A stretch of DNA of 5,671 nt, taken from the IMG/VR virus record IMGVR_UViG_2663763286_000017, one strand, 5' to 3'. This document shows positions 1,785-5,671 of the stretch, one piece after another. The DNA comes from a virus. Lineage: Duplodnaviria > Heunggongvirae > Uroviricota > Caudoviricetes. Made by a program: the position numbers and the translations under genes. Position 1 is the stretch's first letter, and each line of letters opens with the position of its first letter. Below the pieces are notes generated by a model. The model was not told the DNA's origin, searched no databases, and was given only the letters and a program-made list of their open reading frames with translations.

Positions 1785-2177
1785 TTACATACTCTCAATG
1801 TCATTTTTTAGTGAGTGCTTGTGTAACTCCATGGAGTAATCAACATCACGAAGAGTTTTTTCAATCTGCTTGCTTCTCAGGGTGGCAAGCGCATTATCAA
1901 TTGACACTTTTTCTTCATCTGAAGCATCAGCTCTCATTTTCGTAAGAGTCTTACGAGCCCTTGCCACATCCACCTTGAAACGTACGTCCTCTATGCTAGG
2001 TACGTTAACAAACGTAAGAAGTAGCAAAAAGAAGTGAGCAATAACAACAGCAACCCCAGGGAGAAATGCGTTGATATCAGCAGGTAACCCAATATATGCG
2101 CTAGCCTTGACCAATAGGTAATTTGCCACCGGTGTGCACCACGCTTGGCTTGCAACATACTTAGATTGTTGAATCAT
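1785..2177 (-). CDS. Gene C of unknown operon: 130-aa predicted membrane protein (two hydrophobic helices plus charged coiled-coil-like tail)
   Basis: ATG 2177-2175 overlaps the TGA of gene B (ATGA); GAGG lies 6 nt upstream. Hydrophobic segments VANYLLVKASAYIGLP and FLPGVAVVIAHFFLLLLTFVNV, then a K/R/D/E-rich tail. Stop TAA 1787-1785. No family recognised. Confidence 0.7.
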   Translation of the reverse strand: MIQQSKYVASQAWCTPVANYLLVKASAYIGLPADINAFLPGVAVVIAHFFLLLLTFVNVPSIEDVRFKVDVARARKTLTKMRADASDEEKVSIDNALATLRSKQIEKTLRDVDYSMELHKHSLKNDIESM

Positions 2178-2413
2178 GAAGTGCCTCGCGTTAAATCACG
2201 CTGAACCTCACTCAACGTGGACGCGAGCTCACGTGCATCCTTTGCATCCAACTGAACTTCGCAATAATGCCTAACTCCACATCGATCTATATAAGTAAAT
2301 TTGAGTGTCTTACTTGGTTTAAGCCAAACCAAAAAATGATATACAGCAAAACGAGCCAACATAAAGGCGGCAACAAAAACCGTAATCATCAACATGACAC
2401 TTAAATAAGGCAT
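2174..2413 (-). CDS. Gene B of unknown operon: 79-aa small membrane protein (N-terminal TM, polar C-terminal tail with two Cys)
   Basis: ATG 2413-2411 lies 8 nt after the TAG of gene A; hydrophobic N-terminus LSVMLMITVFVAAFMLARFAVYHFLVWL; stop TGA 2176-2174 overlaps the start of gene C. No family recognised. Confidence 0.65.
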   Translation of the reverse strand: MPYLSVMLMITVFVAAFMLARFAVYHFLVWLKPSKTLKFTYIDRCGVRHYCEVQLDAKDARELASTLSEVQRDLTRGTS

Positions 2414-2421
2414 ATTATTAC

Positions 2422-3309
2422 CTATACGATTCGACGTTCAGCTGCGGCGCGATGCCGTACAACCTGCGTGATAATGTATGCTGGATTCCCCAATACACCA
2501 TTAGTTTCTTTGACTCTTTTTGTCACATTCACTACAAAAAGATCATCTTTACTGAATGACGCTTCGTTTAAATTTACTCGCTCAAGAAAACCAGCATCCG
2601 CCATCTTAACCTTTACATCCTCGCCGTCTGGCAATACCATCCTCCAATCTGTATCGGAAGTAAAGCTCAGCTTAGAAAACTTGACGTTTAAGGTCAATGA
2701 GTCTTCATGTGTATGTTGTACAACCGTATTATTCACTTTTTTAAAAGAAACAGATTGCTCTTGCGAAATAGAGACAATCTCCTCCCCACTTGAGTTTTTT
2801 ACTCTAAACGACGAGTTTTTTTCAGTTTGCAGAGGAGTGTGTACCAATTTACTCATTTCATTGCGGATCGTAGAGTTTGTAACGAGCTTTTGTACGTCAT
2901 TTGAACACTCAAATCGCTCATTATCAACAACAAAAGTCGCTCGGTTATTGGCTTCATCTATAACAACCTCATGTGGCTTTCGCCCTCGCAACCATTCTAC
3001 AACCCCAACCAAACTCCCAGCACTTGCGCCGGTGGCAACAGAAAGCCCCAAGAGTTGCAAAGTAGATAAACTACCCAAAACAGAGACAAGAACAGTAAAA
3101 GATCCTTCCTGAATTGCCTTAATACTAACCCTAGTTGTTGCAGTCTCACCGTGGATAATTTTCTCTGCATTATCAATCAAATTACTTAATGAAGACAGAG
3201 CATCACCAAGCATTTTAGCATCGATCTCATTATTCGCATATGCATCCCCAGCATATGCAATCTCAAGCTCTGTTACCTGTTGGTCGGTCATGAAGTTCAA
3301 CTCCACCAT
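2422..3309 (-). CDS. Gene A of unknown operon: 289-295 aa protein with a central small-residue-rich hydrophobic segment; function unknown
   Basis: Long minus-strand ORF. The first ATG (3309) has no Shine-Dalgarno; the second in-frame ATG (3291-3289) has GGTGGAG 9 nt upstream and is the likelier start (MTDQQVTELEIAYAG...). Stop TAG 2424-2422. Sampled GC is ~35% (2701-2800). No Walker A, HExxH or other catalytic motif seen by eye. Confidence 0.75.
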   Translation of the reverse strand: MVELNFMTDQQVTELEIAYAGDAYANNEIDAKMLGDALSSLSNLIDNAEKIIHGETATTRVSIKAIQEGSFTVLVSVLGSLSTLQLLGLSVATGASAGSLVGVVEWLRGRKPHEVVIDEANNRATFVVDNERFECSNDVQKLVTNSTIRNEMSKLVHTPLQTEKNSSFRVKNSSGEEIVSISQEQSVSFKKVNNTVVQHTHEDSLTLNVKFSKLSFTSDTDWRMVLPDGEDVKVKMADAGFLERVNLNEASFSKDDLFVVNVTKRVKETNGVLGNPAYIITQVVRHRAAAERRIV

Positions 3310-3410: not shown

Positions 3411-3566
3411 TTACTCCTCAGGTTCGTAAGCTGTGAAGACAGCGACCTCCGTCTGGCCGGTTCGGATTCGTACCTCGCAGAGGTCTTTCCTCGTTACCAG
3501 TGCCGTCACTATGACGGTTAAACAGATGACGATCAGGGCGATTAACATCGCCTTTTGCTGCTTCAT
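3411..3566 (-). CDS. hok: Hok/Gef-family type I toxin (51 aa; closest to HokD/RelF in my memory), with an in-frame mok-like upstream extension to 3623
   Basis: ATG 3566-3564 preceded by AAGGAGAAG; protein MKQQKAMLIALIVICLTVIVTALVTRKDLCEVRIRTGQTEVAVFTAYEPEE has the Hok architecture (TM helix, then RKDLCE..R...EVA.F.AYE). Stop TAA 3413-3411. Track ORF 3411..3623 (70 aa) is the same frame from an upstream ATG, i.e. a mok-like leader ORF that here is in frame with hok. Confidence 0.88.
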   Translation of the reverse strand: MKQQKAMLIALIVICLTVIVTALVTRKDLCEVRIRTGQTEVAVFTAYEPEE

Positions 3567-3579
3567 AGCCTGCTTCTCC

Positions 3580-3608
3580 TTGCCTTTCGGCGCGTAAGAG
3601 GCTAACCT
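3580..3608 (+). promoter_or_regulatory. Putative sok-type antisense promoter (TTGCCT-17-TAACCT)
   Basis: Plus-strand TTGCCT (3580-3585), 17-nt spacer, TAACCT (3603-3608). Position and sequence parallel the R1 sok promoter as I recall it (TTGCGC-17-TATCCT), inside the start of the mok-like ORF on the opposite strand. Confidence 0.4.
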
Positions 3609-3614
3609 ACATGT

Positions 3615-3690
3615 GCAAGTCATAGATATGGCCTCAGATTAATGTTAAGCGTCTTGCCGGACGCGTAATGTTAACTGGGGCTTTTCTCTA
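3615..3690 (+). ncRNA. sok: Putative Sok-like antisense RNA (type I antitoxin), roughly 65-75 nt
   Basis: Plus-strand transcript from about 3615 would be complementary to the mok-like start and Shine-Dalgarno region of the hok mRNA. It contains a long imperfect hairpin (3641-3653 / 3660-3672, one A-G mismatch, loop TTGCCG) followed by GGGGCTTTTCTCT (3677-3689). Ends are estimated, not measured. Confidence 0.4.
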
Positions 3691-3737
3691 TCTGCCGTTG
3701 GTGTTCATGCCCGAGGCAGATAGCCTCAAGCACCCGC
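3688..3737 (-). promoter_or_regulatory. hok mRNA 5' leader elements: tac-like stem-loop and 5' fbi element pairing with the mRNA 3' end (3350-3364)
   Basis: Minus-strand RNA 5' end reads GCGGGUGCUUGAGGCUAUCUGCCUCGGGCAUGAACACCAACGGCAGAUAG, with a 9-bp hairpin CUAUCUGCC...GGCAGAUAG (3688-3696 / 3716-3724). The 5'-most 14 nt (3724-3737) are complementary to 3350-3364 (GCGGGUGC/UUGAGG against CCUCAA-C-GCACCCGC, one bulged nt), as in the fold-back-inhibition pairing of R1 hok mRNA. Confidence 0.55.
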
Positions 3738-3741
3738 AGCA

Positions 3742-3769
3742 ATTCTACTTAACTCTCGCTTTACCGCAA
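3742..3769 (-). promoter_or_regulatory. Putative hok promoter (TTGCGG-16-TAGAAT)
   Basis: Minus strand: TTGCGG (revcomp of 3764-3769), 16-nt spacer, TAGAAT (revcomp of 3742-3747). It places the transcription start at about 3735-3737, right at the 5' fbi element. Confidence 0.45.
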
Positions 3770-3781
3770 ACCGTTTTTACC

Positions 3782-3803
3782 CGATATGGGAATTCCCATA
3801 TCG
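3782..3803. repeat. Perfect 22-bp palindrome CGATATGGGAATTCCCATATCG, about 13 bp upstream of the hok -35
   Basis: Read directly: 3782-3792 is the exact reverse complement of 3793-3803, centred on GAATTC. No U-tract follows on either strand, so an operator for a dimeric DNA-binding protein is the more likely reading. Confidence 0.5.
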
Positions 3804-3811
3804 TAATGAAT

Positions 3812-3916
3812 TCAGTTCCCTAGTCGATCCATCAAAAACACAACCAGGCAGTAAACGCCCACAACAGCAATAACAGCCAGCGCACCTTCCATTGCCAGTG
3901 AAATATCATCCGACAT
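3812..3916 (-). CDS. Tiny hydrophobic ORF, 34 aa (single predicted TM helix)
   Basis: Not in the track. ATG 3916-3914 with AAAGGAGGG 4-5 nt upstream; translation MSDDISLAMEGALAVIAVVGVYCLVVFLMDRLGN; stop TGA 3814-3812. Confidence 0.4.
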   Translation of the reverse strand: MSDDISLAMEGALAVIAVVGVYCLVVFLMDRLGN

Positions 3917-3951
3917 ATTCCCTCCTTTGGTGTTAATCCCGGCGAACGTTT

Positions 3952-4035
3952 TTACCCCCACCGACAAATAACATATACTAAAAAAGCGATAGCCATAGCA
4001 ACGCCTGTAATTGCAAATGCTTCAGGCCAGTTCAT
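3952..4035 (-). CDS. Tiny hydrophobic ORF, 27 aa (single predicted TM helix), translationally coupled to the DUF551 gene
   Basis: Not in the track. ATG 4035-4033 overlaps the TGA (4034-4032) of the upstream gene as ATGA; consensus AGGAGGT lies 6 nt upstream; translation MNWPEAFAITGVAMAIAFLVYVICRWG; stop TAA 3954-3952. Confidence 0.45.
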   Translation of the reverse strand: MNWPEAFAITGVAMAIAFLVYVICRWG

Positions 4036-4616
4036 TGGCGCACCTCCTGCGGCGGTTCTGGTAGCGGCATCCAGTCGGTTACATTGCGGCTCTGTGTTTC
4101 GAAAAATTCATCACCATCACGGACTACATCAAAAAACTCACCGTCTCGATATTGCGCATAAAGAACGAATGCGCCATCACATAAAATAATTACGTGCTGA
4201 CAGTCATCCGGCATTCGCTCACTACAGCTTATCCAACCATCCAGAGTTACCGGATAGTTGGTTGACGTTTCCGAGATTTCCCGAAAATTATTGGTTGACG
4301 AACCCTTCTTTTCCCGAAAGTTTCCAGCCTGAAGCATGGCGGCGCTGTCTGGCGGGGCAGCATATAGCGGCACGTATATTTCCGGTTCCTTATCAGCACC
4401 GGGTTGCTCTTCCAGTGAGAATGTCTTTCCGGTAAATCGATTCATATAAAGCACGGGCTCTGCTTCCAGCGAAGCCTGAGCAACAAGGGCCAGTGCTAAA
4501 TCCAACTCAATTGCCTCGAGAGAATTTTTGAATGCTGTCTGTTTTACTGCAAATTTCATCGCCTTTACATTTTCACTAACATGACTGATTAACTGCTCTT
4601 TTGTAAAAGTGGTCAT
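4032..4616 (-). CDS. DUF551-domain prophage protein (~194 aa from ATG 4616; track ORF extends to GTG 4676)
   Basis: C-terminal region ...DGWISCSERMPDDCQHVIILCDGAFVLYAQYRDGEFFDVVRDGDEFFETQSRNVTDWMPLPEPPQ matches the DUF551 signature (W-I-S...MPLPEPP at the C-terminus of prophage proteins), from memory. In-frame ATG 4616-4614 has AAGGAGA about 6 nt upstream; the track start at 4676 is GTG overlapping the upstream stop (GTGA), so both starts are possible. Sampled GC ~55%. Confidence 0.7.
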   Translation of the reverse strand: MTTFTKEQLISHVSENVKAMKFAVKQTAFKNSLEAIELDLALALVAQASLEAEPVLYMNRFTGKTFSLEEQPGADKEPEIYVPLYAAPPDSAAMLQAGNFREKKGSSTNNFREISETSTNYPVTLDGWISCSERMPDDCQHVIILCDGAFVLYAQYRDGEFFDVVRDGDEFFETQSRNVTDWMPLPEPPQEVRQ

Positions 4617-4672
4617 CTCATTCTCCTTTGATGCGAATGCCAGCGACAATTGAAGCCTGATAGCTAATTCAC

Positions 4673-5068
4673 TCACAGTACCGCCTCCTGAAAATTGCCC
4701 TGATAGAACGCCAGTACACGCAGCATAACTTCACTCTTCCGGCACTCGCCACAGATTATGTTCTGTTGTCTGTCGTAGCGGCGTATTTCTCCGTCTGGTA
4801 ACTTTCGAATCAATGTCTGGTCGGTTGTTTTCTCCGCTGCCTTACGCCATACGCGATACACCTGTTCTGATGTAAAAACACCGTATTTACCGGGCATGTA
4901 TAAATCGCCACAAGCCAGTACATCCACAAGGCAACGTCTGACTGAATGCCAGCCTGCTCCCGTCGCTCTCTCCAGTTGTGATATCGTCATGCGTTCATTT
5001 TTGCGTACCAGCCCGATAATTCGGGCCTTCAGTTCTTCACGCTGTTCGTGTGTAAAAGGTTTCGCCAT
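4673..5068 (-). CDS. Hypothetical prophage protein (~131 aa from ATG 5068; track ORF starts at TTG 5083), possible HTH segment
   Basis: ATG 5068-5066 has GGAGG 5 nt upstream (MAKPFTHEQREELKARIIGLVRKNERMTISQLERATGAGWHSVRRC...); stop TGA 4675-4673. No family confidently recognised. Confidence 0.6.
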   Translation of the reverse strand: MAKPFTHEQREELKARIIGLVRKNERMTISQLERATGAGWHSVRRCLVDVLACGDLYMPGKYGVFTSEQVYRVWRKAAEKTTDQTLIRKLPDGEIRRYDRQQNIICGECRKSEVMLRVLAFYQGNFQEAVL

Positions 5069-5083
5069 AAGCGCCTCCGGCAA

Positions 5084-5290: not shown

Positions 5291-5671
5291 TGAACCGCCC
5301 CGGAAATCCTGGAGACTAAACTCCCTGAGAAAGAGGTAAACAGGATGACTAAAAATACACGTTTTTCCCCCGAGGTCCGTCAACGGGCAGTTCGTATGGT
5401 TCTGGAAAGTCAGGGCGAATATGACTCACAATGGGCGGCAATTTGTTCCATTGCCCCAAAGATTGGCTGTACACCAGAGACTCTGCGTGTGTGGGTTCGT
5501 CAGCATGAGCGGGATACCGGGAGTGGTGATGGTGGACTCACCACCGCTGAACGTCAGCGTCTGAAAGAGCTGGAACGTGAAAATCGTGAACTGCGCCGCA
5601 GTAACGATATCCTTCGCCAGGCTTCCGCTTATTTTGCGAAGGCGGAGTTCGACCGCCTCTGGAAAAAATGA
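5291..5671 (+). mobile_element. Left end of an IS629-like (IS3 family) insertion sequence; body continues right of window
   Basis: The terminal sequence TGAACCGCCCCGG... begins at 5291 (IS3-family ends start with TG) and orfA starts 54 nt inside. The orfA protein matches IS629/IS1203-type OrfA, from memory. Confidence 0.8.
5345..5671 (+). CDS. IS3-family transposase OrfA (IS629-like), 108 aa, HTH DNA-binding subunit
   Basis: ATG 5345 with GAGG upstream; protein [108 protein letters not shown]; stop TGA 5669-5671. The A-run GGAAAAAATGA at the 3' end is where an IS3-type -1 frameshift into orfB would be expected. Confidence 0.9.

Follow-up and report, generated by a model that had tools for sequence, protein, structure and literature searches.

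The two open reading frames (ORFs) of 27 and 34 residues that lie directly upstream of the hok/sok locus in the virus record IMGVR_UViG_2663763286_000017, a stretch of 5,671 nucleotides referred to here in its entirety as the window, are probably genuine micro-genes for single-pass inner-membrane peptides, the 27-residue one coupled to the gene before it and the 34-residue one linked to hok. The window is a piece of a lambdoid prophage from Shiga-toxin-type Escherichia coli. The 34-residue ORF is already annotated and has been reported as translated, and the 27-residue ORF is a new member of a large, almost never annotated phage family. Both frames are coding and conserved, as is their gene arrangement, and published ribosome occupancy covers the 34-residue ORF; the hydrophobicity of the two peptides predicts that both would insert into the membrane.

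Sequence and start signals of the two micro-genes

Both micro-genes and their ribosome-binding sites were read directly from the minus strand, as follows:

4048-4042, minus strand: Shine-Dalgarno sequence AGGAGGT of the 27-residue ORF, 6 nt before its ATG
4035-3952, minus strand: 27-residue micro-gene, peptide MNWPEAFAITGVAMAIAFLVYVICRWG
3928-3920, minus strand: Shine-Dalgarno sequence AAAGGAGGG of the 34-residue ORF, 3 nt before its ATG, conserved in subtype A (defined below)
3916-3812, minus strand: 34-residue micro-gene, peptide MSDDISLAMEGALAVIAVVGVYCLVVFLMDRLGN

These positions, the two ribosome-binding sites and the ATGA overlap of the 27-residue ORF with the upstream DUF551 gene had been proposed in an original prediction made from the letters alone, and reading of the strand confirms each of them; the placement of both ORFs directly upstream of hok, likewise proposed, is borne out by an Rfam sok match at 3561-3735 and by the Pfam match of Hok. 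The final codons of DUF551 contain the ribosome-binding site of the 27-residue ORF, and the TGA of DUF551 is shared with the ATG of that ORF. A perfect GGAGG placed 3-16 nt upstream is found for only 6 of the 237 candidate starts of the window, and both micro-ORFs are among the six. A programmed -1 frameshift joining DUF551 to the 27-residue frame was ruled out, given that a slippery heptamer is missing and that the genes preceding the micro-ORF are many and unrelated.

The description of each peptide as essentially one hydrophobic helix also stands, with a single 17-residue hydrophobic stretch apiece. The best Kyte-Doolittle mean over 17 residues is 2.48 in the 27-residue peptide (residues 7-23; charges of -1 on the N-terminal and +1 on the C-terminal side) and 2.95 in the 34-residue peptide (residues 13-29; charges of -3 and 0). 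The 27-residue peptide is acidic at its N-terminal tip and carries a C-terminal Arg, and the C-termini of the two micro-peptides read RWG and DRLGN. By the positive-inside rule, the charge pattern of the 27-residue peptide suggests an N-out/C-in orientation; the orientation of the 34-residue family is ambiguous, with a charge pattern that differs between its subtypes.

A phage family around the 27-residue ORF

The 27-residue ORF belongs to a phage family that is characterized by an N-terminal M-x-W-P-E-A-F motif followed by one variable hydrophobic helix. Full-length matches with 52-70% identity were obtained by tblastn in 97 phage records, including 933W, VT2-Sakai, BP-4795, and Min27, and a degenerate DNA pattern for M-x-WPEAFAI recovered more than 120 IMG/VR viral contigs with 17 distinct peptides of 22-34 residues, compared with approximately 0.2 matches expected by chance (our own estimate from the specified bases and an assumed collection size). 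Past the motif, the DNA of the divergent members (among them several metagenomic contigs and the P1-like Salmonella phage SJ46) is unalignable, yet a hydrophobic stretch is encoded every time. In species-representative genomes, the same pattern returned only internal stretches of unrelated large proteins and thus no gain on host range; one possible longer relative was found in a metagenome-assembled Pseudobdellovibrionaceae genome.

The arrangement of the family is as consistent as its motif. In almost every context, the ATG and the stop codon of the preceding gene overlap, the identity of that gene varying between contexts, and the next gene begins 1-9 nt past the stop of the family ORF. A GGAGG-type site (GGAGGT or GAGGTG) with the same spacing is present in the lambdoid relatives and in phage SJ46, behind differing upstream genes, and other purine-rich sites stand in its place in divergent members of the family.

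Selection on the 27-residue frame was assessed in nine relatives that were gathered mostly by nucleotide similarity in order to avoid circularity. All nine contain exactly 27 codons; their pooled ratio of nonsynonymous to synonymous polymorphism (pN/pS) is 0.38 in the coding frame, as opposed to 0.99 and 1.65 in the other two frames, and the variable columns number 10, 8, and 20 at the first, second, and third codon positions, the third being the most variable. These values fit purifying selection in the 27-residue frame only. Moreover, the ORF is intact in 117 of the 118 loci that were anchored on the neighbouring 34-residue ORF, the remaining allele carrying an in-frame deletion of 6 nt, and the WPEAF motif is maintained through synonymous changes and in unrelated phages.

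The exact 27-residue sequence is held by one GenBank protein record only, ETJ68712.1. With its stop codon the ORF measures 84 nt, and the minimum gene length of Prodigal is 90 nt; the ORF, effectively unannotated, falls under the length that the usual gene callers accept.

Annotation, translation, and subtypes of the 34-residue ORF

The 34-residue ORF is represented in PGAP/RefSeq as the hypothetical protein WP_001278450.1, and the exact protein is recorded from approximately 1000 contigs. It is also identical to ECs_5710 (YP_009502606.1) in prophage Sp6 of E. coli O157:H7 Sakai, for which the coordinates shift by 144 nt between genome versions and the sequence is the same. As a result, the original view that both ORFs are unannotated and fall below gene-calling cutoffs has to be given up for the 34-residue ORF, which PGAP annotates, and effectively persists for the 27-residue ORF, with its single record and its 84 nt.

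Translation at this locus was reported by Hücker et al. (2017, PLoS One; PMC5597208), who described XECs145, a 162-nt ORF, as a novel translated gene of O157:H7 Sakai. XECs145 and ECs_5710 share the identical 34-residue protein and the same position between a DUF551-type gene and mok/hok; the start assigned to XECs145 lies further upstream, so that it contains the whole 34-residue ORF and runs into the end of the 27-residue ORF. In lysogeny broth (LB), XECs145 showed an RNA level of 79.1 and a footprint level of 346.1 reads per kilobase per million (RPKM), a ribosome coverage value (RCV, footprints over RNA) of 4.35, and a coverage of 0.99 (PMC5597208 Tables S2, S10), and in brain-heart infusion (BHI) the corresponding figures were 121.3, 150.1, 1.14, and 0.84 (PMC5597208). 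The tables of that paper predict an inner-membrane protein with one transmembrane helix; the paper treats the longer ORF, assigns it no function, and notes neither the hok link nor the 27-residue ORF. Near-identical copies of the region occur in 3-6 places per genome in most of the O157 genomes listed.

The relatives of the 34-residue peptide form a narrow group. Only E. coli relatives with at least 78% identity were found, both by exhaustive HMMER comparison of the peptide with 1.84 billion representatives and by a protein search with the 51-residue TTG-extended reading of the same ORF, which is probably not the real protein. Weak tblastn matches in phages Tritos, Evi, mEp460, and HannyBb led to a second subtype (B), which in Tritos and HannyBb, where it was inspected, reads V(V)LVLKCALAIAAVMAIYCLAVVLMDRLSD, has its own AGGAGG or AGGAG site with a GTG start, and adjoins hok/sok on the upstream side in surroundings that are otherwise unrelated and contain neither a DUF551 gene nor the 27-residue ORF. 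Subtype A, to which the window belongs, and subtype B share alignable sequence only between approximately codon 12 of A and the stop codon, and nothing relates the Shine-Dalgarno site, start, and N-terminus of one to those of the other. Two independent 5' ends, each with an in-frame start, argue that the 34-residue helix is meant for translation.

Variation in this family follows the reading frame to some degree. The variable columns by codon position number 6, 2, and 11 in subtype A and 4, 6, and 9 in subtype B, again with the third position as the most variable, and the frame is full length in 24 of 25 haplotypes (12 of 13 and 12 of 12 in the two subtypes), the remaining one stopping two codons early. 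One allele has changed its ATG to GTG, whereby a start codon is preserved. There are 15 synonymous and 26 nonsynonymous polymorphisms where a synonymous share of 26% would be expected, so synonymous changes are somewhat enriched. An alternative-frame ORF of 25 residues at 3909-3832, which shares the same Shine-Dalgarno site, was rejected, as subtype B does not preserve it and its frame shows no enrichment of synonymous changes.

Conservation in related prophages, synonymous substitution, and ribosome occupancy were the checks named in the original prediction. Both frames are conserved; the substitution pattern supports the 27-residue frame clearly (pN/pS as above) and the 34-residue frame more weakly, by its excess of third-position changes; and the published profiling (PMC5597208) covers the 34-residue ORF, the 27-residue ORF not being covered as a unit of its own.

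Association with hok and local architecture

The intergenic segment between the 34-residue ORF and hok, together with its flanks, holds three further features:

3947-3957 and 3772-3782: 11-bp perfect direct repeat, GGGTAAAAACG on the minus strand (from sequence)
3782-3803: 22-bp perfect palindrome CGATATGGGAATTCCCATATCG, between the 34-residue stop and the hok promoter (from sequence)
3742-3770, minus strand: putative hok promoter, with -35 TTTGCG at 3770-3765, a 17-nt spacer, and -10 TAGAAT at 3747-3742 (predicted from sequence)

Among the loci examined, a Hok ORF lies 220-260 nt downstream in 142 of the 171 members of the 34-residue family, and the contig ends first in 11; of the 18 members that remain, the six inspected have variant Hok sequences or hok remnants. 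On plasmids, the family gave only 9 matches. The exclusive link of this family to hok is the one lead worth following. A bioRxiv study (10.1101/2025.08.07.668861) lists 6290 phage hok loci in IMG/VR. The association holds in one direction only: when phage hok loci were instead sampled by the hok 5' motif, 31 of the 75 loci had the 34-residue family, 11 had an adjacent ORF of the 27-residue family (the arrangement of 933W), four had another small ORF with two helices, and 29 (approximately 39%) had no upstream small ORF. In over half of these sampled loci, a short transmembrane ORF thus ends 8-40 nt before the -35 element of hok, and a homologous TTGGCG-17-TAGAAT was picked up by the promoter scan in subtype B loci. 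In the Qin prophage of K-12, hokD follows relBE, and no micro-ORF is present.

As a separate observation, at least three unrelated kinds of short transmembrane ORF end just upstream of phage hok promoters. The additional small ORF found before some phage hok loci in IMG/VR has 59 residues, appears by eye to form two helices, and reads MKNALQFLFVAFWLF...MAVMCIEYWR.

The direct repeat flanks a 175-bp segment that comprises the 34-residue ORF, its ribosome-binding site, and the palindrome, and that is extra relative to 933W-type loci, which have a single copy of the repeat and no 34-residue ORF. The single repeat copy in 933W-type loci suggests that the 175-bp segment has been gained or lost as a unit. 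The palindrome, which as RNA would fold into a hairpin of -14.5 kcal/mol (z -3.7) without a U tract, is present also at hok loci that lack the 34-residue ORF; it may serve as an operator or as a site of RNA processing or recombination.

Proposed mode of action

In the proposed scheme, ribosomes that end DUF551 at ATGA would restart on the strong Shine-Dalgarno site within the last codons of that gene and produce the 27-residue peptide, and the 34-residue peptide would be translated from its own Shine-Dalgarno site, as a narrow E. coli phage family that appears to travel only as the upstream neighbour of hok/sok cassettes. Both peptides may bind a larger membrane protein or mildly perturb the membrane, as other small membrane proteins do; this mode of action, the most plausible one for them, is proposed by analogy and with low confidence. 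The roles of toxin, regulator of membrane proteins, or exclusion factor that the original prediction raised are likewise conjectural. With similarly low confidence, the exclusive hok link raises the possibility that the 34-residue peptide acts together with, or on, Hok or its expression upon prophage induction.

In a stronger form of the last proposal, the 34-residue peptide (and, in 933W-type phages, the 27-residue one in its place) would be an unrecognized protein component of phage hok/sok modules, a small membrane partner that tunes the action or expression of Hok at induction. This would account for the absence of the 34-residue family away from hok and for the short transmembrane ORFs that stand before the hok promoter; it is nevertheless considered unlikely. 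Since the minimal hok/sok region of plasmid R1 functions without an upstream ORF and roughly 39% of the sampled phage hok loci have none, the data do not demand a functional tie to Hok. Local alignment of either peptide to Hok was no better than alignment of shuffled sequences (p approximately 0.1), and HOK_GEF (PF01848), the profile of proteins of approximately 50 residues with an N-terminal transmembrane helix and a conserved, Cys-containing periplasmic tail, matched neither peptide in a Pfam scan at E values up to 10, compared with 1e-23 for the neighbouring Hok. A common origin of the two micro-ORFs, or of either with Hok, was discarded, the similarity not being significant.

Several further observations weigh against two functional, translated membrane peptides. 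Disrupted alleles of the 27-residue ORF exist, so the gene is dispensable: two E. coli genomes and the phages POCJ13 and 75/02 Stx have TAG in place of TGG at codon 3, and in phage 689R5, where the shifted frame was annotated instead, codon 2 is hit by a 1-nt deletion. The commonest 27-residue allele, MIWPEAFAITGVAIAIDFLVYVICRWG (Sakai Sp6 and 41 IMG/VR loci), carries Asp at a position in mid-helix that is Ala in the window. For the 34-residue ORF, the selection signal is weak: between subtypes A and B, the ratio of nonsynonymous to synonymous divergence (dN/dS) is 0.44, and frame 0 is not separated from frame +1. The XECs145 reads cannot be assigned to one locus because there are several near-identical copies per O157 genome, and the Sakai footprints reach only the last 25 nt or so of the 27-residue ORF, within the over-extended XECs145. 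In addition, a literature search on the peptide strings, DUF551, and small ORFs near hok yielded no functional description, and no match to a family, a structure, or the literature indicates a function: neither micro-peptide matches a Pfam, PHROGs, NCBIfam, or PADLOC family beyond transmembrane matches at noise level, and neither has a PDB sequence match at E values up to 10.

The knock-out alleles of the 27-residue ORF cluster at its first codons, and two differing sequence backgrounds contain the TGG-to-TAG change at codon 3. Decay of the ORF could explain this early-codon clustering, as could counter-selection of the peptide in some hosts.

Alternative explanations

One or both peptides might be type I toxins with unrecognized antitoxin RNAs, forming a cluster of membrane toxins beside hok, an explanation that is judged distinctly unlikely. 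Like Hok/Gef, TisB, Ldr, ShoB, ZorO, and DinQ, both micro-peptides are small, hydrophobic, and single-helix, their 27-34 residues lying within the familiar range of the last five, and they adjoin a real type I system; the recurrent knock-outs at codons 2-3 of the 27-residue ORF are what might befall a harmful peptide, and a weak antisense promoter-like site lies over the 34-residue start (plus strand, 3892-3919). However, promoter-like sites of this kind, of which another lies at 3951-3979, occur at chance frequency (3 found, 2.1 expected), and in subtype B the approximate equivalent of the antisense site at 3892-3919 has a -10 element that looks poor by eye. An Rfam scan of the window at E values up to 1 found sok (3561-3735) as the sole antitoxin RNA, and that scan, combined with the promoter and terminator scan, found neither a cognate antisense RNA nor a structured type I toxin leader besides the sok region. 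The micro-ORFs have strong and accessible ribosome-binding sites, that of the 27-residue ORF being operon-coupled, which is the opposite of the repressed, structured leaders of such toxins. Neither peptide is significantly similar to Hok or matches HOK_GEF, and the 34-residue ORF is heavily occupied by ribosomes (RCV 4.35) in growing, uninduced cultures without apparent harm, which is a weak argument against strong toxicity.

For the 34-residue ORF alone, the conserved part might instead be a cis-acting element of hok, such as a promoter element, an insulator, or a weak terminator against read-through, with the frame being incidental. The occurrence of the family solely directly upstream of the hok promoter would agree with this, as would the restriction of A/B homology to the promoter-proximal 3' two-thirds of the ORF, the terminator-like hairpins that the scan marked inside the ORF of both subtypes, and the weak coding-selection statistics. 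Yet terminator-like sites are at chance number in the window (2 found, 1.5 expected), and the hairpin in the 34-residue ORF (-5.4 kcal/mol, z +0.49) is no more stable than shuffled sequence and out of register with that of subtype B; a terminator was therefore rejected as the cause of the conservation in this window. A Shine-Dalgarno site with an in-frame start is found in each of two unrelated 5' contexts, 24 of the 25 haplotypes retain the full frame, and ribosome footprints lie over the ORF, all of which renders a purely cis-acting element improbable.

The 27-residue ORF could be a mere ribosome relay between DUF551 and the next gene, the sequence of its peptide being irrelevant; the ATGA overlap in many contexts, the start of the next gene within a few bases of the stop, and the loss of the ORF by nonsense or frameshift in some phages would all be compatible with such a role. 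A relay would not demand a pN/pS of 0.38 in this frame only, a fixed length and stop position, a WPEAF motif kept through synonymous changes and in unrelated phages, or a hydrophobic helix that always follows the motif, and an in-frame deletion allele exists as well, so this explanation is considered quite improbable. That both ORFs are chance open frames without function is hardly credible: ORF length alone is unremarkable, with 82 ORFs of at least 20 residues in the window, and a hydrophobic, T-rich frame easily stays open, but conservation, coupling, ribosome-binding sites, and ribosome profiling contradict it. Two genuine micro-genes for single-pass membrane peptides remain the preferred explanation.

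Comparison with known small membrane proteins

MgtS, AcrZ, MgrB, PmrR, KdpF, and CydX are bacterial small membrane-protein regulators. The two micro-peptides resemble them in size (approximately 20-50 residues), in having one transmembrane helix, and in bearing short conserved motifs at the membrane interface; unlike these regulators, they are phage-borne, and there is no sequence relation. A likeness also exists with phage holins and antiholins, superinfection-exclusion peptides, and YdfD of Qin, which are phage-encoded short transmembrane peptides from early or lysis operons. In contrast to holins, the micro-ORFs lie outside the lysis cassette of endolysin and spanin, in the early region, flanked by the replication genes on one side and the DUF1367/YbcO genes on the other, and their peptides have no charged C-terminal domain and no PHROG match above noise.

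Genomic context of the window

The window is 99.9% identical to E. coli 2013C-3264 and to many O157, O145, and O55 genomes, and the region is the rightward early region of an Sp6-like lambdoid prophage of Shiga toxin-producing E. coli (STEC), extending from the replication genes to the Q antiterminator. On the minus strand, the order by Pfam assignment is a truncated DUF1627 gene, DUF977, DUF551, the two micro-ORFs, mok/hok/sok, a three-gene insert, DUF1367, and YbcO. The neighbouring features are:

5345-5671, plus strand: orfA of an IS3-family insertion sequence (IS), by eye
4032-4676, minus strand: DUF551 (EaA-like) gene, Pfam PF04448, E 7e-20, also annotated by PGAP in the 99.9% identical locus
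3561-3735, minus strand: hok mRNA leader/sok region, Rfam RF01794, 108 bits, E 1e-24
3623-3411, minus strand: mok, from the ORF list
3566-3411, minus strand: hok, nested within mok, Pfam HOK_GEF, E 1e-23, hokD in PGAP
54-272 (window end 1-272), plus strand: C-terminus of an IS66-family transposase, by eye

The Rfam sok match falls on the minus strand, which is the strand of the hok mRNA and opposite to that from which Sok RNA would be transcribed; the match at 3561-3735 thus marks the locus and says nothing of the orientation of the antitoxin. Both ends of the window are IS fragments by eye, which cut the prophage stretch on either side. The DUF1627 gene is truncated at the end that holds the IS3-family orfA, where an ALIL frameshift pseudoknot is also matched near threshold by Rfam at 5626-5671 (49.2 bits, gathering score 50), the window end cutting it. 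The start listed for the DUF977 ORF (4673-5083, minus strand) is a TTG at 5083; the true one may be the ATG at 5068, which is in frame and preceded by GGAGG.

The three-gene insert begins with a 295-residue protein (2422-3309, minus strand) that has no Pfam match and fits the PADLOC candidate-defence model PDC-S42 (E 1e-46), followed by uncharacterized proteins of 79 residues (2174-2413, minus strand) and 130 residues (1785-2177, minus strand), which appear membrane-like by eye. A Doc-family toxin occupies this slot instead in E. coli 2013C-3264, whose locus is near-identical in other respects. The three genes look like a swappable insert of defence or accessory genes between hok and the DUF1367 gene.

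Implications for Shiga-toxin phages

If the preferred explanation is true, the conserved 27-residue WPEAF family is missed when STEC prophages, among them Shiga-toxin phages such as 933W, are annotated in the standard way, and a regular companion of the hok/sok cassettes of lambdoid phages has so far escaped notice; apart from this, the two ORFs would add two more small phage membrane proteins to the very many that have been reported. HokW has been reported to aid the release of the Stx2 phage Sp5 (PMC8621323), and in view of that role, a membrane peptide tied to hok could bear on the timing of lysis and on the output of toxin phages.

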